A stretch of 64,000 nt of DNA from NCBI GenBank assembly GCA_946613195.1, contig CAMOFE010000001.1, positions 8,151 to 72,150 on the forward strand, in the 5' to 3' direction. The notes under the pieces were generated by a model. The model was not told the origin of the DNA and did no database searches. It saw only the letters and a program-made list of their open reading frames with translations. The stretch's first letter is position 1, and each line of letters begins with the position of its first letter. Positions 37,702 to 60,702 of the stretch are shown piece by piece. The DNA is from an uncultured Alphaproteobacteria bacterium (GTDB taxonomy: Bacteria; Pseudomonadota; Alphaproteobacteria; Rs-D84). Both the position numbers and the translations under genes were made by a program.

Positions 37702-37728
37702 AAAAATCCGGCAACGCCGGATTTTTTA
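37702..37728 (+). terminator. Rho-independent terminator
   Basis: AAAAAATCCGGCAACGCCGGATTTTTTAT. Confidence 0.65.
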
Positions 37729-37734
37729 TTAAAA

Positions 37735-37792
37735 CGCAGAGAGCAAAGAGCAACGAAAGTACCAGCAACCAAAAAATCATAAATCATAAATC
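37735..37792. repeat. Dispersed repeat family B copy
   Basis: CAGAGAGCAAAGAGCAACGAAAGTACCAGCAACCAAAAAATCATAAATCATAAATC, matching 8984-9034 and 45035-45085. Confidence 0.6.
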
Positions 37793-39715: not shown

Positions 39716-40437
39716 TGAATAATAGACAGAATATCTTTTATAGGTTTTTATATGGCGCGGTGGCGTGTGTGTTTGCGTGCGTTGTTTCGTCTGGCGCGTT
39801 TGCCGCGGGTGATGGCGGGTGCGATAATGAAGAAAATGATTACATAAATCCTGAACTGGCGCTGTGTTCGGTGCATGCATATAATATGGGACTGGATGAA
39901 AACCCCAGCAGTGATATGCGCCCGGTTATGCGTGGAGTGGTGGGACTGAAAACCACGGTTATCACGCAACAGATGAAAAAACAGTATGATTATATGGACG
40001 CGATGATTCGTCGTTTTCGTGTACAATTACAAAAGGCGACATTACAAACAAAATTACAGGCTGCCGGTGCTGCTGCATCTGATTCATCGGGTGGTTCTGA
40101 ACGATTCGTTTCCAACGACCGTAATATATTTATCGCCGGCGTTAATAATTGTAACAATGAAATAACATCATTAAAAAAATATGAATGTTTATATAATAAT
40201 CTGAATACTATTACTAATTCGTCGGCAAACGGGTCAAATGTTACAGTTGAGTTAAAGAAACAATTGGCAAATGATTATAGCCTTACCAAAGGCAGCAAGT
40301 CTGAATGCAGGAAATACACAGATATAAAAACTAGAAAAATATTTCAGACTTGTTTAGATGATTTAAGGGACGTAGTTCGCACAGAGTATGAAAAAGAACA
40401 ACGCGAAGATATGAAAGCTCGAAATAGCAGATATTAA
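39706..40437 (+). CDS. Secreted hypothetical protein, co-transcribed with the preceding gene
   Basis: 10-nt overlap with the upstream gene. Signal peptide (..SSGAFAAGDGGC). 243 aa with a helical, charged C-terminus. Confidence 0.45.
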   Translation: MQIMNNRQNIFYRFLYGAVACVFACVVSSGAFAAGDGGCDNEENDYINPELALCSVHAYNMGLDENPSSDMRPVMRGVVGLKTTVITQQMKKQYDYMDAMIRRFRVQLQKATLQTKLQAAGAAASDSSGGSERFVSNDRNIFIAGVNNCNNEITSLKKYECLYNNLNTITNSSANGSNVTVELKKQLANDYSLTKGSKSECRKYTDIKTRKIFQTCLDDLRDVVRTEYEKEQREDMKARNSRY

Positions 40438-40463
40438 AATCCGCGCAATGCGCGGATTTTTTA
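40436..40463. terminator. Bidirectional Rho-independent terminator
   Basis: AAAATCCGCGCAATGCGCGGATTTTTTAT between convergent genes. Confidence 0.65.
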
Positions 40464-42440: not shown

Positions 42441-42564
42441 AGCAGGTCTATTATTATAACAAATTTACAATTTTCGCAAGTGAAACAATTTGCATTGCTG
42501 GTACTTGATTTTTTGTTTTTGGGGTCTATATATTTATGGACATAAATTTATGGAATGATAAAAA

Positions 42565-43689
42565 ATGAATAAAAATCCGTATGAAGTGTTAGGTGTGGCG
42601 CGTGATGCGTCAGATACTGATATTAAAAAGGCGTATCATAAACTGGTTATGAAATACCACCCTGATAAAAATCCAGGGGACAAGGGTGCCGAAGAAAAAT
42701 TCAAGGAAGTAAATAACGCGTTTGATATTCTAAAAGACCCACAAAAACGTGCAGCGTATGACCGATTCGGTGATGCGGCGTTTGCCGGTGGTAACGGCGC
42801 ATCTGCGGGTGCGGGTGGTTTTGGCGGTAATCCATTTGGTGGTGGTTTTCACTTTGATATGGGTGGCGCAGGCATGGATGATATTTTACGCCAGGCGATG
42901 CGTGGCTTCGGTTTTGATATGGGCGATGGTCCGCGTGGTGCGTCCGTGGCGCGTTCGGGTCGCGATTTATTGGACGAAGTACAAATATCACTGCGTGATG
43001 CGTATTTTGGCAAAACGCATACTGTTAAATTTTCAACAAATGTTGCGTGTGATAAATGTAATGGTTATGGCACGGCGGATGGTAAACCGGCGCTGGTATG
43101 TCCGCGTTGTAATGGACGTGGAACAGTTGCGGCACGCCAAGGATTCTTTGCGGTTGAAATGCCATGTCCAGAATGTAATGGTTTGGGACACAAAATTGAC
43201 AAGAAATGCACAAAATGCGGTGGGGATGGCACGGTAAATAAACAACGCACATTGGATGTTAAAATCCCAGCCGGCATTATGGATGGTGCGCGATTGCGCC
43301 TGGCAGGCCAGGGCGAGGCGGGACAAAACGGTGCGCCAGCGGGGGATTTTTACCTGGATGTGCGTGTGATGCCAGATGACAAGTTTACGCGTGATGGCGA
43401 TGATTTGATTCAACGGGTTGAAGTGCCATTTACAACATTGGCGTTGGGTGGCGATATAGATGTTGAAACAATTGATGATAAAAAATTGTCTGTATCTATT
43501 TCATCTGGTACCCAGGTTGGCGCAAAATTGCGTGTACGTGGGCATGGTATGCCGCGTGCGCGTGGTGGCGGTATGGGTGATATGTATATTGATGTTGCGA
43601 TTCGGATTCCAACAAAATTAAATGATAAGCAAAAGAAAGCATTATCTGAATTTGCCGGAATCAAAAATGATAAAAAAGGTTGGTTCTGA
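42565..43689 (+). CDS. dnaJ: Chaperone DnaJ
   Basis: J-domain with HPD, Gly/Phe region, four CxxCxGxG zinc-finger repeats. 374 aa. Confidence 0.92.
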   Translation: MNKNPYEVLGVARDASDTDIKKAYHKLVMKYHPDKNPGDKGAEEKFKEVNNAFDILKDPQKRAAYDRFGDAAFAGGNGASAGAGGFGGNPFGGGFHFDMGGAGMDDILRQAMRGFGFDMGDGPRGASVARSGRDLLDEVQISLRDAYFGKTHTVKFSTNVACDKCNGYGTADGKPALVCPRCNGRGTVAARQGFFAVEMPCPECNGLGHKIDKKCTKCGGDGTVNKQRTLDVKIPAGIMDGARLRLAGQGEAGQNGAPAGDFYLDVRVMPDDKFTRDGDDLIQRVEVPFTTLALGGDIDVETIDDKKLSVSISSGTQVGAKLRVRGHGMPRARGGGMGDMYIDVAIRIPTKLNDKQKKALSEFAGIKNDKKGWF

Positions 43690-43715
43690 TAAACAATCGC
43701 GCCATGTGCACAATT

Positions 43716-43848
43716 GTTTAAGTGAATAGTGAAAAGTTAATAGTGAATAATGTATGAACGCCCGCACGATTTATCGTGCGGGTGCATTAATTAATGTTGA
43801 GCCGACAAAATGTCGGCGCACAAACACTGTTCACTTAAAAAAACTATT
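43716..43848. repeat. Full copy of dispersed palindromic repeat family A (MITE-like, ~130 bp)
   Basis: TAAGTGAATAGTGAAAAGTTAATAGTGAATAATG..CCCGCACGATTTATCGTGCGGG..GCCGACAAAATGTCGGCG..CACTGTTCACTTA. Inverted termini and two internal hairpins. Nearly identical to 61153-61272. Confidence 0.7.
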
Positions 43849-44018
43849 GCATGTTTTTTTTTCTTGCGTTTGTTCTGATAGTTTTTATACACTGGCAAAT
43901 GAAAAATGCGGGGGAACAGAAATGAGCAAGGCATATGGCATAGGGCATAAAGCATATATAAGCAATAGAACAAAGCAATTAAATCATAAATCAGCAATCC
44001 GAAATCATAAATTAATGA

Positions 44019-44759
44019 TTGTTTTTTGCATTATGCACTATGCCCGTTGCCATTTGCATTAGTCCAGTCAATGCAGAAGAATACTGTGTTCCGACAAATT
44101 ATACAATAACATATCAATTGGGCGGTGGTTGTAATGGTACCGCGCCATCATCTGTAACGGTTGCCCGTGGTGCGAATTTTACGACACCAAATGCCGCAAC
44201 GGCGTGTGGCGACAATACCGTTACAAAATGGAAAATAGACGGCACAAATGATTACATAACATCAAACACAACATTGCCATACGTGTGGACGAATGATATA
44301 ACATTGGTTGCAGGCGCCACCGTTGTCAGCCTATCTGCGCCGTATTCTGTAAATACCAGCATACACGGTTATCAGAACGACAGTCGTAGTGCATACGGTG
44401 CAGAGTCATTCAATTGCACCGGATGCAACGATAATGAATGGCATGCGGACTTCAGTTATGGCACGGTAACTGGCATTGCCAGTTGTAACAGCACCCCTGG
44501 CGATAATCAGGATATGAAATGGACAAATCCGACAACAGCCAGTTCAGACAGTATGAGCAGCAGCAGTACCGGTCAATATTGCTGGTGTAAAATGACAGGC
44601 TTTGCCGGGCAGTCATTGTCGGTTGCGCCGTGGGGGTTCTTCTACGACTACGACAGTGCGGACAGTTGCGCGGCCGGCTGTGCGTCCCACGTTGCCGCTC
44701 ATCCCGGATTCCGCGGGGCGGTGTATAACGCATCGGGCGTGATTAATTCCGAAGAATAA
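44019..44759 (+). CDS. Secreted Cys-rich hypothetical protein
   Basis: Probable signal peptide (..ICISPVNA|EEYC). 246 aa with ~14 Cys and Thr/Asn-rich beta-like segments. Start is uncertain (TTG/ATG). Confidence 0.45.
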   Translation: MFFALCTMPVAICISPVNAEEYCVPTNYTITYQLGGGCNGTAPSSVTVARGANFTTPNAATACGDNTVTKWKIDGTNDYITSNTTLPYVWTNDITLVAGATVVSLSAPYSVNTSIHGYQNDSRSAYGAESFNCTGCNDNEWHADFSYGTVTGIASCNSTPGDNQDMKWTNPTTASSDSMSSSSTGQYCWCKMTGFAGQSLSVAPWGFFYDYDSADSCAAGCASHVAAHPGFRGAVYNASGVINSEE

Positions 44760-45120
44760 AGTTAAATATCCATCTGTGCATCGGTATAGCAGCGATTAAG
44801 GCACAGGGCAAAAGTTCCCCTCTGGCTAGAGGGGTGCCGCGAAAGCGGCGGGGTGTCGTGAAAAAAAAAGAGCACAGAGCAGAGAGTACAGAGCACAGTG
44901 TTCTACCGCCACTGTCATACTCGGGCTTGACCCGAGTACCCAGGTAAATAATGCAGCGCGCAATGCGCGCACAAATAAACCTGGATTCCACGGTCAAGCC
45001 GTGGAATGACAGGAAAAGAGAGTAATGACAAAAATAGAGCACAGAGAGCAACCAACAACCAGCAACCTAAAAATCATAAATTCAGTAATTGCTGGATTTT
45101 ATTCTTGCTTTTTAATCATT
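44760..45120. repeat. Composite intergenic repeat region (multiple perfect palindromes plus family B repeat)
   Basis: Palindromes CCCCTCTGGCTAGAGGGG, ACTCGGGCTTGACCCGAGT, TTCCACGGTCAAGCCGTGGAA and CAGCGCGCAATGCGCGC; AGAGCACAGAGCAGAGAGTACAGAGCACAG reiterations; family B copy at 45035-45085. Confidence 0.65.
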
Positions 45121-45170
45121 AAAAAGTATAATAATTGCCAGTCTTAATGAAATAAACCAAGGTTTCTGAT

Positions 45171-45623
45171 ATGAAACGCAAAGAATATGTTCGTTTGATG
45201 GGACGTGCGCTGATTATGTTTGACAGATTGGCGGATGGATTAAAGTTACGTCCAGAAAAACTGGACGGTTTTACGCGCCAACAAATGACTGTGCTGGTAC
45301 GATTGCTGTTGGATGGCCGTGCCAAGTTAAAAGATATTGCGCGTCGCGAAATGGTATCTGCGCCGAATCTGTGCGCAACATTTCGGAAACTGGAACACGA
45401 TGGTTTGGTGTTGCGTACGGTTGATGAATCAGACAGACGAAACACGTGGTATTCTGTTACGCGTTCTGGGGAACGGGTTGCGCGTCGCGCCATTGAACAA
45501 TTTTATGATATGATGGAAAAAATGTTCGCAGATTTGGATTCAGATGATGAACAAGAATTAACAGGCGCATTGGAATCAATGAACGAAATTTTAACAAAGG
45601 TGGTAAAAAATCATGTTGGGTAA
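45171..45623 (+). CDS. MarR-family transcriptional regulator
   Basis: Winged HTH (..QMTVLVRLLLDGRAKLKDIARREMVSAPNLCATFRKLEHDGLVLRTVDESDRRNTWYSVTRSGE). 150 aa, first gene of the efflux operon. Confidence 0.8.
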   Translation: MKRKEYVRLMGRALIMFDRLADGLKLRPEKLDGFTRQQMTVLVRLLLDGRAKLKDIARREMVSAPNLCATFRKLEHDGLVLRTVDESDRRNTWYSVTRSGERVARRAIEQFYDMMEKMFADLDSDDEQELTGALESMNEILTKVVKNHVG

Positions 45624-46950
45624 AAAGTATTATTTGATTGGTGGTATTATTTGTGCGCTGGTTTCGGCGCCGTCTTTTGGTATGGATTTATCACTGGAAT
45701 CGGCGGTGGAAAAAATTATCGCAGAATCCCAAGATATTAAGAAAGCAGATGCAAATGTTAAACAGGCCCAAGCGCAATTGGATGCGGTAAACGCGAATCG
45801 TTGGTTTAATATTTCTGCAAATGCATCGTATATGAATCTGATAAATGTTAAAAAGCCATTTGATTCCACGGGAATGGAATTGCCTGATAATCTGAACATG
45901 GTAAAACATTTCTTGAATAATGCCGAAGATTTGGATTTGTCTAATCTTGCAATCCCAGATAATATATTTATGGCAGGTGTGAAAATAACCCAACCGATAT
46001 ATACATTTGGTAAAATCGGTCATGCCGTGGACAGTGTGCGTGACGCAATTTCTATGTCCGAATCGGGACGTGAATTGACTATGCGCGAAGTTCGGTACAG
46101 TGCCACTGATTTATATTGGACCGCCAAAATGACAGATGAAATTGTGAAACTGGCGGAAAAAGATTTGCAATCTGCGCGCCAGGCTAAAAATAATGTGGCG
46201 GCGGTTGGTCGTGCGAATCGCAGTAACTTGGTTAAAATTGAATCTGATATTGCAGCAAAACAAATAAACCTGTCGGATGCAGAATTTAATCGTGATACCG
46301 CGTACAGAATGTTGAAAATTTTGGCGGGCATTGATATAAATGAAGATATTGTTTTAACAGATGAATTTCCATCTGAATTTGCAGACCTGGATGCAGGCGA
46401 ATTTACCACCACACCAAAATTGGATATGTTAAGCAAGCAGGCAAAAATGTATGAATCCCAGGCAAAATCAAAACGCGCAGATGCGTACCCAACACTGGCG
46501 GCAATGGGGTCATACAGTTATATGACAATGGACGAATCGTTCCGTGATATGTTTAATCGCAATAATTCGCAATCTGCGTATTGGGGATTGGCGCTGGAAG
46601 TGCCGATATTTACAGGTGGCTTGAACCGTGCAAATGCAACAGTCAGCGCAATGAATGCCGAAGCCGCCCGTCAAGACCTGGACAAGGCAAAGAAATTAAC
46701 CGCCGAAGAATATAATCGTGCAATTGCACAATATAATCATTTGCGTGGTAATTTGGAAAACTTGCAAAACGCACGCGATTTGGCAGCCAAGGCATATCAA
46801 TTTTCCGAAGAAAGATTTGCCGCCGGCCAAACATCTGCGGTGGAATTATCTGATGTCGCCGCAGGGTTGTATCAACTGGATATGGCACTGTTAAATTCTA
46901 AATATAAAATTTTAATGTCAGCAGAATCTGTTAAAAAATTGGGGAATTAA
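45613..46950 (+). CDS. TolC-like outer-membrane efflux protein (OMF family)
   Basis: Signal peptide. Two OEP repeats with coiled-coil and beta-strand pattern. 445 aa. Confidence 0.8.
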   Translation: MLGKKYYLIGGIICALVSAPSFGMDLSLESAVEKIIAESQDIKKADANVKQAQAQLDAVNANRWFNISANASYMNLINVKKPFDSTGMELPDNLNMVKHFLNNAEDLDLSNLAIPDNIFMAGVKITQPIYTFGKIGHAVDSVRDAISMSESGRELTMREVRYSATDLYWTAKMTDEIVKLAEKDLQSARQAKNNVAAVGRANRSNLVKIESDIAAKQINLSDAEFNRDTAYRMLKILAGIDINEDIVLTDEFPSEFADLDAGEFTTTPKLDMLSKQAKMYESQAKSKRADAYPTLAAMGSYSYMTMDESFRDMFNRNNSQSAYWGLALEVPIFTGGLNRANATVSAMNAEAARQDLDKAKKLTAEEYNRAIAQYNHLRGNLENLQNARDLAAKAYQFSEERFAAGQTSAVELSDVAAGLYQLDMALLNSKYKILMSAESVKKLGN

Positions 46951-46954
46951 AAAG

Positions 46955-47581
46955 ATGAAAACACTAGATAAAATTCGCAAGTGGTTTGCGGGGCTGAATA
47001 TTGCGCGCATAAAAAAAGTTTTTTATATCGCGTGTATGGCGATAATGGTGCTGTGGGTTATATACAGATTTGTGTCTGTCGCACTGGAAAGTCGGCGTGA
47101 TGTGTTTAATACTGCGCGTGATGCGGCGGTAAATGGTGTGCCAGTGCATGTTATTGAAATGCATAAAACAAATGGCGTATTGCGTGAACCTGTGTTTGTA
47201 ACACATAATCGTATTTATGTATCTGGGGCGCGTATAAACTTGTTCCGTACTGGTATGCGTGTGGGCGAAGGTGAAGTTGTATCTGTATCGCATAATATTG
47301 ATTATGATACAGGTATGCATATTGTAACAACACGTGGTGTGGGGGACGGTGCGAACTTTGCCGAATATTCTGCAAACGGATTTTTTGTGCCAGTTTATGC
47401 AATATCAGATGGTGCTGTGTTTGTTGTTAGTGGTGAACACGCATCGCGTCGTGATATATCTGTATCGCGTATGGATTCTGAAAACGCACTGGTATCCCAG
47501 GGGTTGTCGGATGGCGATATGGTGATTTTATCACATATCACAGACGGCGAAAAAGTCAGTATTAAAATTACAGAAAAATAA
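46955..47581 (+). CDS. Short membrane-anchored periplasmic adaptor-like protein (truncated MFP/HlyD-like?)
   Basis: 208 aa with an N-terminal TM then beta-rich domains, in the adaptor position between OMF and RND genes. About 150 aa shorter than canonical MFPs. Confidence 0.4.
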   Translation: MKTLDKIRKWFAGLNIARIKKVFYIACMAIMVLWVIYRFVSVALESRRDVFNTARDAAVNGVPVHVIEMHKTNGVLREPVFVTHNRIYVSGARINLFRTGMRVGEGEVVSVSHNIDYDTGMHIVTTRGVGDGANFAEYSANGFFVPVYAISDGAVFVVSGEHASRRDISVSRMDSENALVSQGLSDGDMVILSHITDGEKVSIKITEK

Positions 47582-47582
47582 T

Positions 47583-50500
47583 TTGTGGGGGGATTTTGTT
47601 ATGTTAAAGTTTTTTGTTCGCAGACCTGTTACAACAATAATGTTTGTTTTGGTATGGGTTGTGTTGGGCTTGGTGTCCATTCCAAAAATGAATATTGAAC
47701 GCACACCGTCCTTGGATTTTCCAATGGTAACTGTTCGGTTTATATATCCCGGCGCATCCAGTGAAGAAATAGAATCCCAGGTTATTAAAAAAGCCGAAGA
47801 TGCCGTATCCGAAGTCCCAGAATTAAAACACATAACATCCCGTATTTTTGAGAATGGCGGATATATTATGACTGAATTCAACCTGGGGGTTGATGCAAAT
47901 GATAAAGCATCCGAAGTCAAATCAAAAATAGATGCATTAGCATCTGAATTCCCAGATGAATTAAAGCAGCCTGTGGTTGAAAAATTAAACCCATTGCAAG
48001 AATCTGTGGTAGATATTGTTTTGCGCGGTGCAGATGCACGCGATTTGGAAAAATATGTTGATGATGTATTGTCTAATAAAATTACTGCAATTCCAGGTGT
48101 AGCCAAGGTATCAACATTTGGTGGACGCAATCGTGCAATTCGTGTTGCGATGAATCCTGACTTAATGGCGGCACGTGGTGTTACGATAATGGATGTTGTA
48201 TCGGCATTGGGTAATAAAAATCTGAATGTGCCAGGTGGTAAATTGGAATATGGAACAACATCTGAAAACGTGCGATTTATTGGTGAATTTGCATCTGTGG
48301 ACGAAATAAGTCAATTACGAATCACAACAGCCGAAGGGCAAAATTTTAGATTGTCAGATATCGCATCTGTATCTGATGGTGCGCGTGATATTGAAACAGG
48401 CGCATTGTACAGTGGCGAATCGGTTGTTATCGCATCTGTGGAAAAAGCATCAGATGGCAACGCAATTAAAATTTCGCGTGAATTGCGTAAACACCTGGGG
48501 GAATATCAATCAGATATGCAATCGCGATTCCCAGATGCAACAATGACAATCGCAACAGATTCATCGGTTACCGTTATGGACGAAACACTGGATACCATGT
48601 GGGGTATTATACTGGGGATTGTGTTCACAGTATTGGTCTTGTTGGCGTTTACGCGTAATTGGCGTTCAACAATTATCGCAGGTGTTGTGATTCCTGCATC
48701 ATTATTGGCTGGATTTACATTTATGTCCGCCAGTGGATTTACCATAAATGTTATGACACTGTTGGCATATTCATCTGCATTGGGGACATTGGTTGCGAAT
48801 GCTATTATTTTGATAGAGGCCGCCCTGCAAGAATTGCGTGCAGGTAAATCACCCGAAGATGCTGCAATTGATGGAACTAAAAAAGTCGCTGTATCTGTAT
48901 TGGCGGGCGTTGGAACAAATGTTGTGGTGTTCTTGCCACTGGCGTTTATGGGCGGAATCGTCGGTATGTTTATGGTGCAATTTGGTCTGACGGTTGTGTA
49001 TTTAACATTGTTATCATTGGTATTCTCGTTCACTTTAACGCCAATGATGATTGCAAAAATATTGCGTTTGACCCCAGGTGATAAAAAAGCCGCAAAACCG
49101 TCTGTTCAGAAAAAACGCAGTACAGGTTGGATGCGAAAAATATTCGTATCCCAGGTGCGACATCCAGGTCGCTTTGCGATTACGGCGGTGGTTGCGCTGG
49201 TTGCATCAACAATGTTGATGCGGTTTGTTGGAAATGAATTCTCGCCATCAACAGATGCAAATGAAATAAATATTACTGCGCGTGCACCAGTTGGCGCAAC
49301 ATATGAAAAATCTGAATCTATTGCGCGACAAATAGAAAAAAATATTTCTGATATACCCGAAGTTTTGGCAACCACAGTCAAAATCGGCGACCAAGGATTA
49401 CAGAATATATCGGTCAAAGTAACATTGGTTGATAATTCTGAACGCGGTAAATCTGATAAACGTTTGGCCCAGGAAATGTTGCCACGTCTGGCGGTGATTC
49501 CAGATGCAGAAATTCAGATTCGTGCAGGTCAAGCAATGGGTTCTGTATCATCTGATATGGTTCTGAATATATATGGTCCAGATGATGCAGTGCGTGAAAA
49601 GTACGCAAATGATATTATCGCAATGGCAAATCAAATAACCGCAGTGCAAAGTGCTGTTCTGGCGCAACAGGTGGCTGGTAATGAAATTAAATTTATCCCA
49701 GATGCGGAAAAAATGAATTTCTGGGGTATAAAAAATTCGTATGCTGGGGCAACTTTGCGTGCAGCGTTGTACGGGAACGATGATTACAAATATAAAGAAA
49801 ATGGCGATGAATATCCGATTATATTGGAATATGACAGCGCATTCCAAAACCATGCAATGTTTGATATGGTTTATGTAAATTCACCAAAAGGGATGGTGCC
49901 ACTGTCCAGCCTGGGTGAAATACAGACTGCGCGTGCAACCCCTGATATTCGCCGTTTGGACAAAAGTCGTATTACAGAAATTGATATCAATATTGGTAAG
50001 TCAACATTGGGACCGGTGCAAGCAAAAATAGAATCTGGTCTGAAAAAAATGGATTGGCAACCTGGGTATCATTATGAATTTGGTGGAATGTCAGAAACAC
50101 AATCAGAATCCACAGGCGAAATCGGCAGCGCATTCTTGTTGGCGACAATATTGACATTTATGTTGTTGGCGGCAATTCTGAATTCGTTTACCCATCCATT
50201 AACAATCGCAACATCAATTATAACCAGTTTCTTTGGTGTGTTTATAATGCTGTTCTTGTCAGGTGCATCAATGAATGTTGGTGCGATGGTGGCGTTTGTT
50301 ATGTTGGTGGGCTTGGTTGTGAATAACAGTATTCTGGTACTGGAACCTGCGTTGGCGCGTGTTCGCCGTGGCGAAGATAAAACAGACGCGATATGGGCAG
50401 AATTAACATCGCGTCGTTCAATGGTAATGATGACATCTATCGCCATTGTAACAGGTATGTTGCCCCAGTTGTGGAGTACCAATGGTATGAAAGCCGCCAT

Positions 50501-50612
50501 GGCGGCGGTAATGATTGGCGGTATGTTGGCCAGTATGCTGTTCACATTTATGTTGACCCCGGCTTTGTTCTTTTTGATGGAAAGTTTGCGGGGCAGGGTA
50601 AAGAAAAAGTGA
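47583..50612 (+). CDS. RND-family efflux transporter (AcrB/HAE1-like)
   Basis: ~1000 aa, 12 TM in a 1+5/1+5 topology with two large periplasmic loops. Typical AcrB N-terminus (MLKFFVRRPVTT..). The true start is probably the internal MLKFF. Confidence 0.9.
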   Translation: MWGDFVMLKFFVRRPVTTIMFVLVWVVLGLVSIPKMNIERTPSLDFPMVTVRFIYPGASSEEIESQVIKKAEDAVSEVPELKHITSRIFENGGYIMTEFNLGVDANDKASEVKSKIDALASEFPDELKQPVVEKLNPLQESVVDIVLRGADARDLEKYVDDVLSNKITAIPGVAKVSTFGGRNRAIRVAMNPDLMAARGVTIMDVVSALGNKNLNVPGGKLEYGTTSENVRFIGEFASVDEISQLRITTAEGQNFRLSDIASVSDGARDIETGALYSGESVVIASVEKASDGNAIKISRELRKHLGEYQSDMQSRFPDATMTIATDSSVTVMDETLDTMWGIILGIVFTVLVLLAFTRNWRSTIIAGVVIPASLLAGFTFMSASGFTINVMTLLAYSSALGTLVANAIILIEAALQELRAGKSPEDAAIDGTKKVAVSVLAGVGTNVVVFLPLAFMGGIVGMFMVQFGLTVVYLTLLSLVFSFTLTPMMIAKILRLTPGDKKAAKPSVQKKRSTGWMRKIFVSQVRHPGRFAITAVVALVASTMLMRFVGNEFSPSTDANEINITARAPVGATYEKSESIARQIEKNISDIPEVLATTVKIGDQGLQNISVKVTLVDNSERGKSDKRLAQEMLPRLAVIPDAEIQIRAGQAMGSVSSDMVLNIYGPDDAVREKYANDIIAMANQITAVQSAVLAQQVAGNEIKFIPDAEKMNFWGIKNSYAGATLRAALYGNDDYKYKENGDEYPIILEYDSAFQNHAMFDMVYVNSPKGMVPLSSLGEIQTARATPDIRRLDKSRITEIDINIGKSTLGPVQAKIESGLKKMDWQPGYHYEFGGMSETQSESTGEIGSAFLLATILTFMLLAAILNSFTHPLTIATSIITSFFGVFIMLFLSGASMNVGAMVAFVMLVGLVVNNSILVLEPALARVRRGEDKTDAIWAELTSRRSMVMMTSIAIVTGMLPQLWSTNGMKAAMAAVMIGGMLASMLFTFMLTPALFFLMESLRGRVKKK

Positions 50613-50701
50613 ATAGTGAACAGTGAATAGTGTTTGTGCGCCGACATTTTATCGGCGCAACATTCATTTATTATTCACTATTAACTGTTCACTATTCACT
50701 A
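50608..50701. repeat. Family A repeat variant with perfect terminal inverted repeats
   Basis: GTGAATAGTGAACAGTGAATAGTG..GCGCCGACATTTTATCGGCGC..CACTATTAACTGTTCACTATTCAC. The element begins inside/at the RND stop codon (AAGTGAATAG). Confidence 0.65.
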
Positions 50702-50703
50702 AA

Positions 50704-50732
50704 TAAAAATCGCCCAAATGGGCGATTTTTTA
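50704..50732. terminator. Bidirectional Rho-independent terminator
   Basis: AAAAATCGCCCAAATGGGCGATTTTTTAT between the RND gene and convergent pgsA. Confidence 0.6.
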
Positions 50733-51329
50733 TTTTATCTTTTTTATTTTTTCTGCAAATGTTCGTGTGTATTGGGTGGCAGACCATAAACTGAATACCA
50801 ATGATGCCCAGATACCAATAATTCCAATTTGGGATAATGAATTCATTATCAACAAATATGTACGCGAAATATTTGCAGGTGTGATAAATGTGCTGAATGC
50901 AAATAATCCCAGGAATGCGACTATTGTTAACATTTGACACGCGGTCTTAATCTTGCCCAGTGAAAAACGTGCATGTGGTACGGGCATCTCAATCTTTTGT
51001 GTGCCCAAGAATTCACGCAGACCGCTGACATACAATTCGCGTGAAATCATAATTATTGTTGGGACAATAATAAACCATGTCGGCATCATAATGCACAACA
51101 TAATCAATGTATTCGCGACCAAGAATTTATCGCCAATATGATCAATCACACCACCGATTTTTGTGCATACATTATATTTGCGTGCCAAGAATCCATCCAG
51201 CCAATCAGAAATTGCCGCCAATATAAATACAATAAACGCACACCAATACCAACGATACATCAATAATGGTATAATCGCAAACGATGCGAAAATGCGAAAA
51301 GCAGATAAAAAGTTTACAAAAAATTTCAT
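50730..51329 (-). CDS. pgsA: CDP-diacylglycerol--glycerol-3-phosphate 3-phosphatidyltransferase
   Basis: CDP-alcohol phosphatidyltransferase motif D(W)LDG..AR......G...D...DK. 199 aa. Adjacent to uvrC as in many proteobacteria. Confidence 0.85.
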   Translation of the reverse strand: MKFFVNFLSAFRIFASFAIIPLLMYRWYWCAFIVFILAAISDWLDGFLARKYNVCTKIGGVIDHIGDKFLVANTLIMLCIMMPTWFIIVPTIIMISRELYVSGLREFLGTQKIEMPVPHARFSLGKIKTACQMLTIVAFLGLFAFSTFITPANISRTYLLIMNSLSQIGIIGIWASLVFSLWSATQYTRTFAEKIKKIK

Positions 51330-52832: not shown

Positions 52833-53306
52833 GTGTGTGCAATGAAACAAGAATCTGGACGCTCTATGATTGAAATGATGGGCGTGTTGGCAATTATGGG
52901 GGTTATCACGGTTGGGGCGACATTGTTGATATCAACAGCAATGCGCACACAAAAACGCAGCCAAGTTAACGATGAAATTATTCAACTGGTTGTCGGTGTG
53001 CGCCAATTATTGGGCGAATATGACGATTATTCGCATATTAACAACAGCACTATATTTGGTGCGATTGGTATGTCGGATAAAAACCCATATGGCGGAACGT
53101 ATGAAATTTCTGTAAATCCGTCAAATACGCGCCAGTTCGTGATTTCTATCAATGGTTTGCCAAAATCTGATTGCGAATATTTAATCACACGCGCATGGTC
53201 TGATTCTGTGGGATATACTGTGTCTGGCGGACGTGAAGGCGGTGCAACCGGCAATTGTGGTGATACAGACGCACGAAATTCTGTTCAGATAATATATGGT
53301 GAATAA
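52833..53306 (+). CDS. Type IV pilin (class III signal peptide; prepilin)
   Basis: ..KQESG|RSMIEMMGVLAIMGVITVGATLLI. Gly at -1, Glu at +5, ~20-residue hydrophobic helix, and a C-terminal Cys pair (SDCEYL...GNCGD) for the D-region disulfide. 157 aa. Confidence 0.65.
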   Translation: MCAMKQESGRSMIEMMGVLAIMGVITVGATLLISTAMRTQKRSQVNDEIIQLVVGVRQLLGEYDDYSHINNSTIFGAIGMSDKNPYGGTYEISVNPSNTRQFVISINGLPKSDCEYLITRAWSDSVGYTVSGGREGGATGNCGDTDARNSVQIIYGE

Positions 53307-53324: not shown

Positions 53325-54296
53325 ATGGCCGCACAAATAATAGAAGTTCCAAAAACCGAAGACGGAACACGATTGTTGCGTTGGTTCTTGCGACGTTTTC
53401 CATCAATGCCCCAGCGTGAATTTTATAAACTGTGTCGTGGTGGACAAATTCGCGTAAATTCGTCGCGTTGCGCAGGAATGGAAATTTTACGTGCTGGCGA
53501 TCATGTACGCATTCCACCAACAATTGCCAGTTATGCAGTACCAGCCGTAAAAAAAACAGAATCTGGGGATGCATATTCACTGACGGATTTAGAAATATTG
53601 CGTAAATGTATTATTCATAATGATGATGACATTGTTGTATTTAATAAACCTGCTGGTATGGCGGTCCAAGGTGGCAGCGGAATTCGTAAATCAATTGATA
53701 AAATGGCATCTGCATTGTTCCCGTATGCCAAGGTGTCGTTGGTTCATCGTCTGGACAAGGATACCAGTGGTATATTGGTTGTTGCTAAAACACAACATTC
53801 TGCCCAGGTTTTATCATCTGCATTTCAGACCAAATCTGCACATAAAGAATATTTAGCGTTGTTAAAAGGTAATGTTCAATCGGCCAGTGGCACTATTGAT
53901 AATTATATGGTCAAGGGTATGATAACAGACAGTCCGATGCGTGCAAATGGTGGCGTTGGACAACGACCACAACGCGCAATTACAGATTATCGTGTTTTGG
54001 CGCATGCGGGTGGTTTAAGTTGGGTTTTGTTTTCGCCAAAAACTGGTCGTACGCACCAGTTACGCCTGCATAGCGCGTTTTCATTGAATGCGCCAATTGT
54101 TGGTGATACATTATATGGTGGTGAAATAAAAATGGATCCGATGATGGGGTCAATGCTGTCAACAAATAACTTGTATTTATTTGCATACAAGATAACATTT
54201 CGGCATCCGACAAGTGGAAAGTTGGTAACTTTTCGTGCAGATTTGCCAGATTTTATGCAGTCTGTGATAAAGTTTTTAGAATTTCCATTGCCATAA
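53325..54296 (+). CDS. 23S rRNA pseudouridine synthase, RluA/RluC-RluD family
   Basis: S4-like N-terminus, catalytic HRLDKDTSG motif. 323 aa. Confidence 0.85.
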   Translation: MAAQIIEVPKTEDGTRLLRWFLRRFPSMPQREFYKLCRGGQIRVNSSRCAGMEILRAGDHVRIPPTIASYAVPAVKKTESGDAYSLTDLEILRKCIIHNDDDIVVFNKPAGMAVQGGSGIRKSIDKMASALFPYAKVSLVHRLDKDTSGILVVAKTQHSAQVLSSAFQTKSAHKEYLALLKGNVQSASGTIDNYMVKGMITDSPMRANGGVGQRPQRAITDYRVLAHAGGLSWVLFSPKTGRTHQLRLHSAFSLNAPIVGDTLYGGEIKMDPMMGSMLSTNNLYLFAYKITFRHPTSGKLVTFRADLPDFMQSVIKFLEFPLP

Positions 54297-54305
54297 AGTT
54301 ATTAA

Positions 54306-56393
54306 ATGAAAAAACAAAAGAAAAAGTTTTTTACAGTATTTCGCATCGCCAGCATATTTTTGTTGGGGTTGTTGGTTGCAATAATTATTGCGTTTTGTCG
54401 GGTAAATCTTGAAACATTGCGTGGCAATGTTATAAAAATGATTCAGGATGCAACGAACACCCCAGTAGAAGTTGCAGGCGCTGTATCGTGGAAATTTTCA
54501 TTGCGTCCACAAATAGAGTTAAATGATGTGCGTGTGCCAAATTATGATTGGGCAAAATGCAAATATGCATTAACCGCAAAAAAAATAGATGTCAGATTAA
54601 ATTTAATTTCATTATTTCACAGCAGTCCGACAATACAAAATATTCGTGTATACGGCGCAAATGCCTGTATAGAACGAAATTCAGATGGCGTGTTGTCTGT
54701 AAAAAGAATATCACAAAACGATTCGGAAACGAATCAAGAATCGCGTTCTGAAACCCCGGATAAATATCTGTTTTCTGACCCTGGATTTGGCGGGTTAGAA
54801 ATTAAAAAGTTAACCGCAAAAATTTTCGGCGAATCGTATAGTCTGGCAGGTTTCCAAATACGTCATGCATCGCATACAGATGCGAATGAATATTCTGGGT
54901 GGATTAAGTTTAATACGGATGTTTTCCCGTTCATATTTTCTTATTCAGAATATGATGCAGAACGCAATGTGTATCCGATTCGTTTGGCGGTGTCTATGGG
55001 TGGGGATGCGTTAATTGCTGATTTGTTTGTTCATAATACAGATACACCGATTGTTGATTTTAATGCATCTGGTGATGTTTCTGATATAACAACATTGGGG
55101 CGCGTATTTGGTGTTGATATGCCGACAATGCAAAAAATAAGTATTAATCTGAATGGTACATTAAGTCGTGATAGGGTTGTGTTTAATAAATCTGTTATAA
55201 ATGCACGTGGAACAGAATTAAACTTTTCTTGTAATTATAATTGGGCAAAAAACAAAATTAAATTACAATTAAACGCCCAAAAAATTACATTATACGAATT
55301 GTTGCCAGAATTATTTGTGCCGTCTGGGCCTGTACAAAATCGTGAATTAAATGTGTTTCATGATATGCCATTGTATGGTGATGTGTTGCGCAATATGAAT
55401 GTGGATGTTGATGCACAAATAAAACGACTGGTTATGTATCGCAATTTGCGGTTAGATAATACAAATCTGAAATTAAAGTTATCAGATGCACACGGGCGTT
55501 TAGATTTGCGTTCTGGAATTGCAGATGGTGATATTCGTATTGCTGCCGATATTGATATTGATGCAGATGGTGTTTTACATATAGTCGCAGGTGGTGTAGG
55601 GCAAAGAATAACGGTTGGTACAATTTTAAGTCAAATAAACATTCGTGATTTTATATCTGGGTTACCTGTGAATTTGGAATTTTATTTACGCGGTTCAGGA
55701 CGTGATATACGCGAATTGATGCATACGGTAAATGGTCCTGTACAGATGTTTTCGGTTGATTCGGGTTATGCACATTCGCAACTGGTTGCAAATATATATG
55801 GCACAGATTTTTTAACATCACTGCGACATGGAATCCAAGATTTGTTCCGTTCAGAAAAGAAACATAATCAAATGAAGATATCTTGTGTGGCTGTAAACAC
55901 TAAATTGCGTGATGGATTTTTAGATACAGACAACGGTATTGCCGCAGAAACAGCAGCGATAAATGTTGGTCTGTCCGGCGATTTAGATTTAGGCGCAGAA
56001 AAAATTAACATGGCATTAAATACAGTGCCTGTACGCGGAATAAAATTGTCTTTGACAGGTAATGTTGTAAATTCTATCAGTATCAGTGGCAATCTGGCAG
56101 AACCAGATGTTAAAATCAGTGGTGCTGCCGTTGCGGGCAAGGTTGCATCGGCCACAGGGTTTGGTTTATTATTGGCACCATTAACTGGTGGACTGGGGTT
56201 GGTTGCGGGCGCAGGTGTCGGTTTGTTGGCGGGGGATTTGCTGGAAAATTGGTTGGCGGATGGCAAACCGTGTGAAACAGCTATGCGTCGTGGTGCGCCA
56301 CATCGCCGGCACGATCCAGAATGGTTTGATACGCCAATAGAAGAATTAATAGGCGCGATTTTTAATCCCGAAACAAATGAAGTAAAGGAGTAA
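54306..56393 (+). CDS. AsmA-family envelope protein
   Basis: N-terminal TM anchor, ~700-aa periplasmic beta-rich body, AsmA-like C-terminal region. Annotation by architecture only. Confidence 0.55.
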   Translation: MKKQKKKFFTVFRIASIFLLGLLVAIIIAFCRVNLETLRGNVIKMIQDATNTPVEVAGAVSWKFSLRPQIELNDVRVPNYDWAKCKYALTAKKIDVRLNLISLFHSSPTIQNIRVYGANACIERNSDGVLSVKRISQNDSETNQESRSETPDKYLFSDPGFGGLEIKKLTAKIFGESYSLAGFQIRHASHTDANEYSGWIKFNTDVFPFIFSYSEYDAERNVYPIRLAVSMGGDALIADLFVHNTDTPIVDFNASGDVSDITTLGRVFGVDMPTMQKISINLNGTLSRDRVVFNKSVINARGTELNFSCNYNWAKNKIKLQLNAQKITLYELLPELFVPSGPVQNRELNVFHDMPLYGDVLRNMNVDVDAQIKRLVMYRNLRLDNTNLKLKLSDAHGRLDLRSGIADGDIRIAADIDIDADGVLHIVAGGVGQRITVGTILSQINIRDFISGLPVNLEFYLRGSGRDIRELMHTVNGPVQMFSVDSGYAHSQLVANIYGTDFLTSLRHGIQDLFRSEKKHNQMKISCVAVNTKLRDGFLDTDNGIAAETAAINVGLSGDLDLGAEKINMALNTVPVRGIKLSLTGNVVNSISISGNLAEPDVKISGAAVAGKVASATGFGLLLAPLTGGLGLVAGAGVGLLAGDLLENWLADGKPCETAMRRGAPHRRHDPEWFDTPIEELIGAIFNPETNEVKE

Positions 56394-56396
56394 AAA

Positions 56397-57155
56397 ATGT
56401 TTAGTTGGTTGGTTTTAATCCAAGTTATTATTATTGCCGCGATAATACTGTTTGTGTATCGCACATTTGTAGAGAATACATCATCTGAAAAAATGGTGCG
56501 TGGATTATTTGGATTGGCATTACTGTGGATTCTCAGTTTTGCACTGTATTGGGCGCATTTGGATTTGTTGGGGCGGTTCTTTCATTGGACAGCATTATTT
56601 TTATCGTTATCACTGGTTGTTGTGTTTCAACCAGAATTGCGTAAATTTATGGCACTGTTGGGAAATGTCCAAGGTTGGCGGCGCATTTTTATGCGCGGTG
56701 GCGTATCAACCAAGAACACATCCGCGCTGGATGCGATTTGTACTGCAACTGAATATATGTCATCAAAACATACGGGTGCATTAATTGTGTTCCCCAGTAC
56801 ATTGGATGAAAGTGCAATTGAAAAAAAAGGTGTTAAAATTGATGCCGAAATTACCAGTGAATTATTGCTGACGATATTCTTTAATAAAACGCCATTACAT
56901 GATGGTGCAGTTATTATTGAAAACAATCGTATAGCGTATGCAGGTGGTATTTTGCCACTGTCGCAAAATAATCTGAATTGGAAATATGGTACGCGTCATC
57001 GTGCGGCACTGGGGTTGTCCGAGGTTTCCAGTGCAACAATCTTGGTTGTATCCGAAGAAAGCGGTGATATATCAATCGCAGAAAAGGGCAAGTTTACTAA
57101 ATATGACGATATGAAAAAATTACGCGCAAAATTAGAAAAAGTATTGAATAAGTAA
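56397..57155 (+). CDS. cdaA: Membrane-anchored diadenylate cyclase CdaA (DacA; c-di-AMP synthase)
   Basis: Three N-terminal TM helices plus a DAC (DisA_N) domain with catalytic signatures ..TPLHDGAVII.. and ..GTRHRAALG.SE..DA.ILVVSEESGDIS. 252 aa. Confidence 0.8.
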   Translation: MFSWLVLIQVIIIAAIILFVYRTFVENTSSEKMVRGLFGLALLWILSFALYWAHLDLLGRFFHWTALFLSLSLVVVFQPELRKFMALLGNVQGWRRIFMRGGVSTKNTSALDAICTATEYMSSKHTGALIVFPSTLDESAIEKKGVKIDAEITSELLLTIFFNKTPLHDGAVIIENNRIAYAGGILPLSQNNLNWKYGTRHRAALGLSEVSSATILVVSEESGDISIAEKGKFTKYDDMKKLRAKLEKVLNK

Positions 57156-57181
57156 AAAAAAACGGCATACGCCGTTTTTTT
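57154..57181 (+). terminator. Rho-independent terminator
   Basis: AAAAAAAAACGGCATACGCCGTTTTTTT after cdaA. Confidence 0.6.
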
Positions 57182-57321: not shown

Positions 57322-58440
57322 ATGGAATTTTCAGTTTATCGTCAGGTACTGATTCGTGCGCTGGGGCACATGCAATCAATCGTTGAAAAACGTGCAACTT
57401 TGCCGATTCTAATGAATGTAAAGTTAGAAGTGTCGGATACATTGATATTATCTGCAACAAATGTTGACTTGGAATTGGTTGAACATGTGGCGGCTGATAT
57501 CACACTGGGGGGCAAGACGACTGTGCCGGTTCAGATGTTATATGACATTGTGCGTAAGTTGCCAGATGATGCAGAAATTAGTTTCAAGCAATCGGGGGAT
57601 CAACTGGTTGTGTCGGCGGCACGTGCAGTATTCCATTTGCCAACATTGCCGGCGGAAAATTTCCCAGCCATGGCGGGCAGTAATCTGACCACTAAATTCC
57701 AGATGACGACTGGGGATTTGGCGCATTTGATTAACCAGACAAAATTTGCAATTCCAACAGATGATGTGCGTTATCATCTGGGGGGGATTTATTTCCATAT
57801 TGCAGACGAGGGCAAAGATAAAAAATTAACTGCGGTTGCCACCGATGCCCAGCGTTTGGCGTTGTGTGCAATGACCGCCCCAGATGGCGCAACAGAAATG
57901 CCATCGGTTATTTTACCACGTCGCGTGATTGGTGAATTGTCTAAATTATTAGAAGATGCAAATGTTGATGATGTAACGGTTGAATTATCTGATACCAAGG
58001 CGCGCTTTACGGTTGGTGCCGCCACATTGACCAGTAAACTGGTTGATGCGCAATATCCAAATTATCGCGTTGTTATACCAAAAGGGAACGACAAAATTGC
58101 GATTCTGGACAGGAAACAGTTTATAAACGCAGTGGACTTGGTGTCTGTTGCGTCCCAAGACAAGACAAAATCTGTTCAGTTGACATTTACAATGAATAAA
58201 TTGGTTGTAAACGCATCCAGTCCAGATGCTGGTACTGCAACCCAGGAACTAGATGTTGAATACAATGGCGACAGTTCGTTTACAGTTGTATTTAATGTAA
58301 AATTCTTGTTGGATGTTGCCGGTCAAGTAGAAGGGGAAAAATTCCAGATGGAAATGCAAGACCCGTTATCGCCAACCAAGATAAATTCTACAGATAAAAA
58401 TACAGATGCATTGTTTGTATTAATGCCAATGCGGATGTAA
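57322..58440 (+). CDS. dnaN: DNA polymerase III beta sliding clamp
   Basis: Three-domain clamp, 372 aa, conserved N-terminus (..L...L..V...V.KR.T.PIL.NV.LE). Confidence 0.9.
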   Translation: MEFSVYRQVLIRALGHMQSIVEKRATLPILMNVKLEVSDTLILSATNVDLELVEHVAADITLGGKTTVPVQMLYDIVRKLPDDAEISFKQSGDQLVVSAARAVFHLPTLPAENFPAMAGSNLTTKFQMTTGDLAHLINQTKFAIPTDDVRYHLGGIYFHIADEGKDKKLTAVATDAQRLALCAMTAPDGATEMPSVILPRRVIGELSKLLEDANVDDVTVELSDTKARFTVGAATLTSKLVDAQYPNYRVVIPKGNDKIAILDRKQFINAVDLVSVASQDKTKSVQLTFTMNKLVVNASSPDAGTATQELDVEYNGDSSFTVVFNVKFLLDVAGQVEGEKFQMEMQDPLSPTKINSTDKNTDALFVLMPMRM

Positions 58441-58468
58441 AAAAACGCGCCATTGGCGCGTTTTTTTT
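58441..58468. terminator. Bidirectional Rho-independent terminator
   Basis: AAAAAACGCGCCATTGGCGCGTTTTTTTT. Confidence 0.6.
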
Positions 58469-58703
58469 AGTGAATCAACGCTTTTAATGGACGATGTGTA
58501 AAGTCAATAAAGCAAATTAATTGAAACACCGTTGGTGTAATTTTTCCATTAATTAATTTATAATAATCAGGTTCATCTATGCCCAACGTGTTGCACATAA
58601 TATATACCGGAATATTCAATTCTTGGCGAATTAGTTCTATTTCGCGTCCGATTGCGTGGCGGTGGCGAAATAAATCATATGTTTCATTTTTGTTAGACAT
58701 CAT
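58467..58703 (-). CDS. Small XRE-type HTH protein (putative)
   Basis: 78 aa. ..IRQELNIPVYIMCNTLGIDEPDYYKLINGKITPTVFQL.. fits the XRE HTH pattern. Confidence 0.35.
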   Translation of the reverse strand: MMSNKNETYDLFRHRHAIGREIELIRQELNIPVYIMCNTLGIDEPDYYKLINGKITPTVFQLICFIDFTHRPLKALIH

Positions 58704-59652: not shown

Positions 59653-60702
59653 TTAACAACCAACAACCTTATCATTGCTGGCCATAATATTTTTTATCTC
59701 GTCCATGCAGTTTTCGGTTATGTTTTGCATCGCCAACCCCATCCAATCGCGCGGATTAAAGTTTTCAGGGTGTGCGGTCAAAAATTCACGCACACCCGCG
59801 GTGAACGCCAGACGTGAATCACTGTCCACATTTATTTTGCAGATGTTCATTTGTGTGGCGCGCCTTAGTTGTGCGGTGTCAATTCCGCGGGCATCACCCA
59901 GTTTCCCACCGTGCGCATTTATTGATTTAACCAAGTGTGCTGGCACAGATGATGCACCATGCAGCACCAGTGGAAATTTTGGTAATTTTTTTGCTATTTT
60001 TTCCAAGATATCAAATCGTAACGATTCATCATCGGATTTTCGCTTATATGCGCCATGACTGGTGCCGATGGCGATTGCCAATGAATCAACATTTGTGTCT
60101 TTTACAAATTTCACAACATCGTCTGGGTTTGTGTATTGTGAATATTCTGATTTTGTGTTTTCGTCTTCTATGCCAGACAGTGTGCCCAGTTCTGCCTCTA
60201 CACAAACATCGTATTTATGTGCGTATTCGGCAACGCGTCGCGACAGTTTTGTATTTTCATCATATGGCATTGCAGATGCATCAATCATAACAGATGAAAA
60301 GCCCAAGTCTATCGCGTGCTGGCATAAATCATACGAATGACCATGATCCAGGTGCAGTGCCACACATTCTGAATCTGATAATTTTAATCCGCCAATCATT
60401 GACATCAGCATATCGTCCCCCATATATTTTAGCGCACTTTCTGATACCGCCAATATAACAGGACTGTGTGTTTTGCGTGCCGCCGCCATAATCGCGGTCA
60501 GTGTTTCCATATTATAAAAATTAAATGCCGGTACTGCATAATTGCGCGTAATTGCATCACTGAACATATCACGGGTGTTAACCAGACCGAATTTGGAATA
60601 TTTTCTCATTTGTGTTCCTTTGTTTTTGTTTATTATATCACAGTGCAAGGGGCTGTGTAAGTGGTTAGTTAGTCCTTGACAACAGGCTGATTTGTGCAAC
60701 AA
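59653..60702 (-). CDS. fba: Class II fructose-bisphosphate aldolase
   Basis: ..AVPAFNFYNMETLTAIM..PVIL.., HLDHG zinc-binding motif and ..HGASS... The likely start is the internal MRKYSK. Confidence 0.9.
   Translation of the reverse strand: MLHKSACCQGLTNHLHSPLHCDIINKNKGTQMRKYSKFGLVNTRDMFSDAITRNYAVPAFNFYNMETLTAIMAAARKTHSPVILAVSESALKYMGDDMLMSMIGGLKLSDSECVALHLDHGHSYDLCQHAIDLGFSSVMIDASAMPYDENTKLSRRVAEYAHKYDVCVEAELGTLSGIEDENTKSEYSQYTNPDDVVKFVKDTNVDSLAIAIGTSHGAYKRKSDDESLRFDILEKIAKKLPKFPLVLHGASSVPAHLVKSINAHGGKLGDARGIDTAQLRRATQMNICKINVDSDSRLAFTAGVREFLTAHPENFNPRDWMGLAMQNITENCMDEIKNIMASNDKVVGC

Follow-up and report, generated by a model that had tools for sequence, protein, structure and literature searches.

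A CdaA-type diadenylate cyclase gene follows an AsmA-family gene across the alphaproteobacterial Rs-D84 lineage

Locus organization

We analysed a 64-kb stretch of DNA from an uncultured alphaproteobacterium, referred to here as the window, which covers about 7% of a genome of roughly 0.9 Mb. Our subject is cdaA, a gene in the window that is predicted to encode a membrane-anchored diadenylate cyclase, the type of enzyme that makes the signalling nucleotide cyclic di-AMP (c-di-AMP). It stands third in a run of genes on one strand, after an rluC-like gene and an AsmA-family gene, and is followed by a predicted terminator and by dnaN. The features of the locus, in window positions, are as follows.

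53325–54296, + strand: rluC-like pseudouridine synthase gene, which opens the rluC-asmA-cdaA run with a 9-nt gap to asmA (TIGR00005, 207 bits; conserved order)
54306–56393, + strand: gene for an AsmA-family envelope protein of 695 amino acids, directly upstream of cdaA (PF05170, E=1.3e-24)
56385–56390, + strand: Shine-Dalgarno sequence AAGGAG for cdaA, within the 3′ end of asmA (read from the sequence)
56397–57155, + strand: cdaA, predicted membrane-anchored diadenylate cyclase of 252 amino acids (open reading frame (ORF) with ATG start; TIGR00159; PDB chains; fold match)
56397–56627, + strand: N-terminal membrane domain of CdaA, residues 1–77, three transmembrane helices (Kyte-Doolittle hydropathy; AlphaFold model)
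56742–57092, + strand: diadenylate cyclase (DAC) catalytic domain, residues 116–232, with GALI127, HDGA168-171, TRHR199-202 and SEESG219-223 (PF02457)
57156–57181, + strand: predicted intrinsic terminator of A-run, GC stem and T-run, directly after the cdaA stop codon (terminator scan; sequence)
57322–58440, + strand: dnaN, a neighbour in a separate transcription unit (TIGR00663, 279.5 bits)

The asmA stop codon, a TAA at 56391–56393, lies 3 nt ahead of the cdaA ATG. Because the Shine-Dalgarno sequence sits inside asmA and a predicted terminator follows the cdaA stop codon, we read cdaA as the terminal cistron of the rluC-asmA-cdaA run and dnaN as a separate unit. In 64 of 79 species an equivalent hairpin with a T-run follows cdaA, its sequence differing from one species to another. 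The preliminary description of this DNA noted that cdaA is followed by dnaN. We reject a functional link between the two: the 166-nt gap between them contains the predicted terminator, and dnaN is displaced in seven related loci (L085, L016, L076, L037, L043, L048 and L054) in which the asmA-cdaA pair stays intact.

The protein encoded upstream belongs to the AsmA family by its matches to PF05170 (87 bits, cut-off 29.8) and PF13116 (49 bits), and it has an N-terminal transmembrane anchor at residues 11–29. Further out, a minus-strand uvrC and a pilin-like ORF precede rluC, and efp and a class-II aldolase gene come after dnaN. This is not the cdaA-cdaR-glmM module of Firmicutes, since the neighbours are asmA and dnaN; no scanned ORF of the window matched YbbR/CdaR or the phosphoglucosamine mutase GlmM, and neither adjoins cdaA. 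The earlier observation that cdaA stands apart from cdaR and glmM therefore holds, and the same order with asmA recurs in 80 relatives.

Identity and predicted structure of the CdaA protein

The predicted protein scores above the cut-off of the NCBIfam equivalog model for diadenylate cyclase CdaA (TIGR00159, 193.9 bits against 188.8, over residues 9–247 of 252) and falls far under those of the CdaS, CdaM and DisA models (114 bits against 225 for CdaM). Its DAC domain (DisA_N, PF02457) was matched with E=4.7e-39 and 133 bits across residues 116–232, corresponding to model positions 2–118 of 119. Kyte-Doolittle hydropathy places three hydrophobic helices at residues 2–20, 37–55 and 58–76. An AlphaFold2 model, built from a 60-sequence alignment and with a mean pLDDT of 79, has helices at residues 4–25, 31–52 and 56–77, then a linker helix and an alpha/beta domain.

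The catalytic motifs are all present, with GALI at 127, HDGA at 168–171, TRHR at 199–202 and VSEESG at 218–223. In a sequence search of PDB chains the best solved match was 9g69_C, over its full length (E=1.9e-37), and the segments GALI, TPLHDGAVI, GTRHRAA and VVSEExG match those of solved CdaA chains position by position. When the model was searched against the PDB with Foldseek, the top 50 matches consisted solely of CdaA, DacA, DacM and CdaM structures (E about 1e-17). Superposition of the DAC domain gave target-normalised TM-scores of 0.75–0.91 over these 50, mostly 0.8–0.9, with 0.85–0.91 for matches to CdaA/DacA structures at a root-mean-square deviation (rmsd) of 1.7–2.3 Å; for the solved CdaA/DacA of Listeria, Bacillus, Staphylococcus, Streptococcus and Enterococcus the rmsd was about 1.8–2.3 Å at about 40–44% identity.

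Across 236 CdaA sequences of the clade to which the protein belongs, the catalytic motifs are at least 98% invariant, and in alignment A1 they are fully so. We reject on this ground the idea of an inactive pseudo-enzyme. By equivalog score, DAC domain, motifs, transmembrane helices and fold alike, the ORF is, as far as its sequence can tell, a CdaA. The architecture of three transmembrane helices and a DAC domain with DGA and RHR motifs, as first described, is thus borne out, and careful alignment revealed no loss of catalytic residues.

Conservation and descent in the Rs-D84 lineage

Almost all relatives of the locus come from gut or rumen metagenome-assembled genomes (MAGs) that bear the names Candidatus Enterousia, 'Alphaproteobacteria bacterium' or 'uncultured Rickettsiales'. 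Ca. Enterousia belongs to the Alphaproteobacteria in the NCBI taxonomy, and its GTDB order is Rs-D84 (PMC12306168), in line with the alphaproteobacterial placement proposed at the outset. Rs-D84 genomes measure about 0.75–1.0 Mb, are without respiration and the tricarboxylic acid cycle and have few biosynthetic pathways; the organisms dwell in the gut, and a partner-dependent lifestyle has been proposed for them (PMC12306168).

In a scan of one genome per GTDB species, we found a close relative of cdaA in at least 109 species-level genomes, and 80 of these loci, whose CdaA is 72–89% identical to that of the window, were kept for the analysis of synteny. A large protein collection held thousands of homologues; the best 120 are all 251–255 residues long and 77–94% identical, and the named members among them read 'diadenylate cyclase CdaA [Alphaproteobacteria bacterium]'. 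The gene of this lineage is already annotated automatically as CdaA in public MAG records. According to one review, c-di-AMP signalling is missing from the Alpha-, Beta- and Gammaproteobacteria (PMC10745434), and the list of c-di-AMP producers in another omits the Alphaproteobacteria (PMC10118264). Our literature search found no paper linking CdaA with Rickettsiales and none reporting c-di-AMP in Alphaproteobacteria. CdaA is here a real exception to the reviewed distribution, and a lineage-wide one.

Two of the related contigs carry labels from another phylum: L006 (CAVGNU010000020.1, 'Bacteroides fragilis') and L041 (CAZJGX010000004.1, 'Muribaculaceae'). Both show the full Enterousia order of uvrC, pilin-like ORF, rluC, asmA and cdaA, with dnaN as well in L006, at identities typical of Enterousia, and would seem to be Enterousia contigs that were wrongly binned with Bacteroidota MAGs in public databases.

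Gene order around cdaA is stable. The gene asmA lies directly upstream in all 80 loci, at a spacing of −8 to +47 nt in 77 of them, and the block of minus-strand uvrC, pilin-like ORF, rluC, asmA and cdaA is unbroken as far as each contig extends. CdaA is on average 77.8% identical to its counterpart in the window; the corresponding means are 77.1% for UvrC, 69.9% for RluC, 51.7% for AsmA, 91.7% for DnaN and 91.3% for EF-P. All five genes were available for 62 species loci and the window; over these 63 sequences, CdaA distances correlate with those of concatenated UvrC, RluC and DnaN (Mantel r=0.786, p=0.001), much as these three do among themselves (0.75–0.83). Against its closest relatives, cdaA has a ratio of nonsynonymous to synonymous substitution rates (dN/dS) of 0.06–0.08.

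A deeper tier of relatives, labelled Rickettsiales, Alphaproteobacteria or Proteobacteria bacterium, encodes CdaA proteins 49–65% identical to that of the window, on contigs with a GC content of 45–52% whose DnaN is 72–84% and UvrC 57–63% identical. Three such loci (L083–L085) keep the order uvrC (minus strand), small ORF, rluC, asmA and cdaA. In L083 and L084, dnaA and a minus-strand pgsA lie just upstream of uvrC; in L085 dnaN has been relocated, and asmA and cdaA are still 2 nt apart.

Because the gene is broadly present, shares its synteny and has distances congruent with those of housekeeping genes, the sequences indicate that cdaA has come down the lineage by vertical descent and under strong purifying selection, rather than by recent transfer. 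The preliminary description had suggested either lateral acquisition or a lineage-specific messenger system. A lineage-wide system is what we find; recent acquisition does not agree with the breadth of presence or the housekeeping congruence.

Alternative explanations

The constant neighbour of cdaA raises the possibility, which we regard as unlikely, that the AsmA-like protein replaces CdaR (YbbR) as membrane partner or regulator and that c-di-AMP synthesis in this diderm is thereby coupled to the status of the outer membrane or of lipid transport. The adjacency holds in all 80 species, with the short spacing and the Shine-Dalgarno sequence inside asmA noted above, and deep relatives retain the pair, even with a relocated dnaN. 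Outgroup CdaA proteins are paired with or fused to YbbR, never AsmA, and the window has no YbbR gene. In partial Mantel tests CdaA correlates most strongly with AsmA (0.48; the other genes give −0.01 to 0.17). However, AsmA correlates likewise with RluC (0.46) and UvrC (0.29), and the mirror-tree signal probably reflects fast AsmA evolution. The whole block from uvrC to cdaA is, moreover, frozen in these reduced genomes of low rearrangement, so that the adjacency is not specific, and there is neither a fusion nor a shared domain. Among nine long CdaA homologues scanned for AsmA fusions we found none; six join CdaA to YbbR, and one contains four DAC stretches. The most conserved region of the AsmA-like protein, residues 571–660, reaches a column identity of about 0.82, against a protein average of ~52% in the genus, and includes a glycine-rich hydrophobic segment (621–645) followed by a charged tail; its conservation says nothing about CdaA. 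Should the AsmA partnership be true, CdaA would have traded its usual extracytoplasmic regulator for a co-transcribed bridge or lipid-transfer protein, and c-di-AMP signalling would receive an input peculiar to diderms, in a bacterium reportedly unable to make its own lipids.

It is very unlikely that the nucleotide serves chiefly as a released signal, acting on the animal host through STING or RECON or on a microbial partner. The case for it is by analogy only: STING is activated by the c-di-AMP of Chlamydia (PMC13463777), and dependence on partner cells has been proposed for Rs-D84 (PMC12306168). Against this, cdaA has no associated gene for export, secretion or host interaction, the organisms live in the gut lumen with no sign of intracellular life in animal cells, and the enzyme is of the standard housekeeping type. 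The relevance to host sensing that had been raised from the STING/RECON connection finds no support in any part of our analysis.

We judge it highly improbable that cdaA, alone or as part of an island, reached this genome recently from a foreign source, and reject this reading on synteny, congruence and breadth. In its favour are the review that places Alphaproteobacteria without c-di-AMP systems (PMC10745434) and the observation that the closest homologues outside the clade are just 41–45% identical and come from other phyla. Yet at least 109 species carry the gene, with identical synteny in the 80 loci fetched; it persists in relatives with a CdaA identity of just about 50%, and its distances agree with those of housekeeping genes. 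Composition is unremarkable (GC 0.42 around cdaA, 0.37–0.44 across the window), mobile-element genes are not among the flanks, and the clade is monophyletic in 100 of 100 neighbour-joining (NJ) bootstraps. An assembly or binning artefact, in which a contig of Firmicutes or Cyanobacteria had been misassigned to an alphaproteobacterial bin, has next to no probability: the labels of L006 and L041 do show that mis-binning occurs in such data sets, but these two share Enterousia synteny and identity levels and are thus Enterousia contigs in wrong bins, and the contiguity of cdaA with dnaA, dnaN, uvrC and efp, in the window and on contigs of up to 922 kb, rules the artefact out.

Deeper origin and comparison with known systems

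The vertically inherited clade is sharply set off from other CdaA proteins. In a library of 50%-identity cluster representatives, its own representative is 57% identical to the window protein, and the best full-length matches thereafter reach 40–45%. The monophyly of the alphaproteobacterial CdaA proteins emerged from NJ trees of 200–204 sequences. The immediate sister (P0126) lies on a 1.7-kb contig without informative neighbours. Next comes a group of about 23 sequences that includes P0123 and P0142; a protein 81% identical to the former (P0466) is labelled Candidatus Gastranaerophilales, and a cluster mate of the latter (P0390) Vampirovibrionales. Outgroup neighbourhoods are heterogeneous and never contain asmA, with gene orders such as PMT_2-family gene-cdaA-YitT/DUF2179, lysA-like-cdaA-ispD, rny-cdaA-hup and cdaA-ybbR. 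The most economical account of these sequences is that cdaA has one ancient origin in the Rs-D84-like lineage. The gene may have come by an early transfer, possibly from a donor akin to Vampirovibrionia, or have been kept here while the rest of the class lost it. One CdaA homologue, of 768 residues, has an unusual architecture of CdaA_N and four separate DAC stretches, and a YbbR-domain gene follows it (L088, 6001–8307; P0124, GCA_965332085.1).

CdaA proteins of Vampirovibrionia (Gastranaerophilales and Vampirovibrionales) are among the nearest relatives outside the clade, at 41–45% identity (217 bits for P0123). They are longer, at about 300–346 residues, and their neighbours differ, with a YitT/DUF2179 gene downstream of cdaA in L081 and the order lysA-like-cdaA-ispD in L086. 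Gastranaerophilales are a gut lineage, as is Enterousia.

The CdaA/DacA enzymes of Firmicutes (Listeria monocytogenes, Bacillus subtilis and Staphylococcus aureus; PDB 4rv7, 6hvl, 6huw, 6gyw and 9g69) share with the window protein three transmembrane helices, the linker helix, the DAC domain (about 40–44% identical, rmsd about 1.8–2.3 Å) and the motifs HDGA, TRHR, VSEExG and GAL. In contrast to their cdaA-cdaR-glmM operon, the window gene follows an AsmA-family gene, in a diderm alphaproteobacterium, and its product is compact at 252 residues, with a transmembrane domain under the Pfam CdaA_N threshold. DacA-YbbR of Chlamydia trachomatis is likewise a CdaA-type cyclase in a Gram-negative organism with a reduced genome, and by analogy we take Chlamydia to be the closest biological counterpart. 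Chlamydia has no dedicated c-di-AMP phosphodiesterase annotated and needs the YbbR partner for DacA function (PMC13463777). Whereas that essential partner is encoded in the chlamydial DacA operon, no YbbR gene lies nearby in the window, and an AsmA-like gene is adjacent instead. Mycoplasma CdaM/DacM (PDB 8ofj and 7dfx) resembles the window protein as a DAC enzyme of similar fold kept in a minimal genome; it has a single transmembrane helix rather than three, and the window protein stays under the cut-off of the CdaM model (114 against 225 bits).

A candidate for c-di-AMP degradation

One gene of the window could encode a degradative enzyme.

3910–4863, + strand: stand-alone DHH/DHHA1 phosphodiesterase candidate of the NrnA/TmPDE/CnpB type, adjoining recJ and 52 kb from cdaA (Pfam DHH and DHHA1)

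Pfam places both DHH and DHHA1 in this ORF, as expected from its first description as an NrnA-like protein. It aligns with the NrnA equivalog model over its full length, far below the cut-off (99 bits against 350). Its best PDB matches are TmPDE, which degrades pApA (TM1595, E=1.9e-25), Rv2837c/CnpB and NrnA, with the DHH and GGGH motifs aligned and intact. With these enzymes of Thermotoga maritima, Mycobacterium tuberculosis and B. subtilis it shares the two-domain architecture; nanoRNA, pAp, pApA and c-di-AMP are all candidate substrates. The protein is plausibly a hydrolase of pApA and possibly of c-di-AMP. Its presence is not specific for c-di-AMP breakdown, because enzymes of this type also degrade nanoRNA in general.

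Other features of the window

The remaining content is chromosomal housekeeping, with genes for penicillin-binding proteins, recJ, lolA, tatC, mraY, ftsW, murG and gatA/B, as well as sufB, dprA, dnaA, dnaJ, tolB and genes for a topoisomerase subunit of the gyrB type and an efflux system. Some 14 kb of sequence (36652–50612) separate dnaA (35196–36539) from the minus-strand pgsA and uvrC, a block that holds an OmpA-like gene, two ORFs without a family match, a gyrB/parE-like gene, dnaJ, a MarR gene, a TolC-like outer membrane efflux protein gene, an ORF of 208 residues and one of 1009 residues, presumably an RND-type pump. In L083 and L084, pgsA and uvrC, both on the minus strand, directly follow dnaA without this block, which, to judge from the gene order, has the look of an insertion or rearrangement close to the origin on the branch leading to Enterousia.

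Several further genes merit mention. A minus-strand gene of the class-II fructose-bisphosphate aldolase family (59653–60702; PF01116, E=4.5e-92) is matched in 57 of the 80 related loci; Rs-D84 genomes are said to lack fructose-bisphosphate aldolase (PMC12306168), and the gene may encode a tagatose-bisphosphate or other class-II aldolase or mark an annotation gap in that study. The small pilin-like ORF at 52833–53306, with a weak sub-threshold N_methyl match, is conserved in 74 of the 80 loci, and a TcpQ-domain protein and a secretin are encoded at 28286–29233 and 29275–30903. These three are possible parts of a type IV pilus or secretion system in a genome of less than 1 Mb; type IV pili have been reported for UBA9783 only, not for Rs-D84 (PMC12306168).

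Nine ORFs of 172–640 residues had no Pfam match, nor an NCBIfam match where tested, amid this well-annotated housekeeping region (14992–15510, 15615–17162, 24511–25479, 27560–28180, 33027–33836, 37793–39715, 39706–40437, 44019–44759 and 46955–47581). The sole match of a 155-residue ORF at 22236–22703, on the minus strand just upstream of gatA/gatB, is the C-terminal domain of the RNA polymerase alpha subunit (PF03118); it is either a free-standing protein resembling that domain or an ORF with a mis-called start. Weak sub-threshold Rfam 'Leu_leader' matches at gene ends (50606–50733, 40405–40463 and 58388–58469) are most likely intrinsic terminators.

Discussion

Taking the sequence evidence together, we consider it very probable that the lineage carries a functional CdaA, encoded last in a conserved unit and passed on vertically across Rs-D84, and that c-di-AMP is important there. 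The three N-terminal helices would anchor the enzyme in the inner membrane, with the linker helix leading to the DAC domain in the cytoplasm. Two DAC domains would meet face to face, as they do in CdaA enzymes already characterised, and condense two ATP to c-di-AMP, with a divalent metal held by the conserved His-Asp of HDGA and the Glu of VSEE. The rluC-asmA-cdaA unit lies near the replication origin, and cdaA would be co-transcribed with the gene of an envelope protein. Breakdown may proceed at least in part through the NrnA/TmPDE-like DHH/DHHA1 enzyme.

In other bacteria c-di-AMP controls the transport of potassium and osmolytes as well as the homeostasis of the envelope, and many cannot do without it. 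By analogy, its role here may lie in osmotic, potassium or envelope homeostasis. We assign CdaA an important role because the gene has been retained in a genome of less than 1 Mb and its dN/dS is about 0.07, which implies that c-di-AMP signalling is important and possibly essential in the Ca. Enterousia lineage, as in other producers of this nucleotide with small genomes.

A number of observations weigh against this picture of a vertically inherited, functional c-di-AMP system. The match to Pfam CdaA_N is sub-threshold (17.2 bits, cut-off 23.8); the predicted topology of the membrane domain is present and its sequence is divergent. The test of congruence rested on linked genes and is compatible with transfer of the whole block, and the union of the alphaproteobacterial clade with the group of about 23 sequences that includes the Vampirovibrionia-like ones is weakly supported, at 48 of 100 NJ bootstraps. 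The 64-kb window contains no ydaO riboswitch (Rfam at the gathering threshold and at E<=1), no known c-di-AMP receptor in Pfam scans (RCK_C potassium transporter subunits, DarA/PstA or CBS proteins) and neither of the c-di-AMP-linearising phosphodiesterases GdpP and PgpH; intergenic gaps of the window, read by eye, held no recognisable small receptor ORFs.

Overall, the advance is distributional and contextual, not mechanistic. We regard it as a modest extension rather than a new mechanism because the gene has already been annotated automatically and the enzyme itself is conventional. The locus provides a natural case of a CdaA without adjacent CdaR or GlmM. An entire alphaproteobacterial lineage keeps a canonical CdaA under purifying selection in genomes of less than 1 Mb, which extends the known distribution of this messenger. 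Rs-D84 joins Mycoplasma and Chlamydia among the reduced-genome organisms in which c-di-AMP is probably indispensable.

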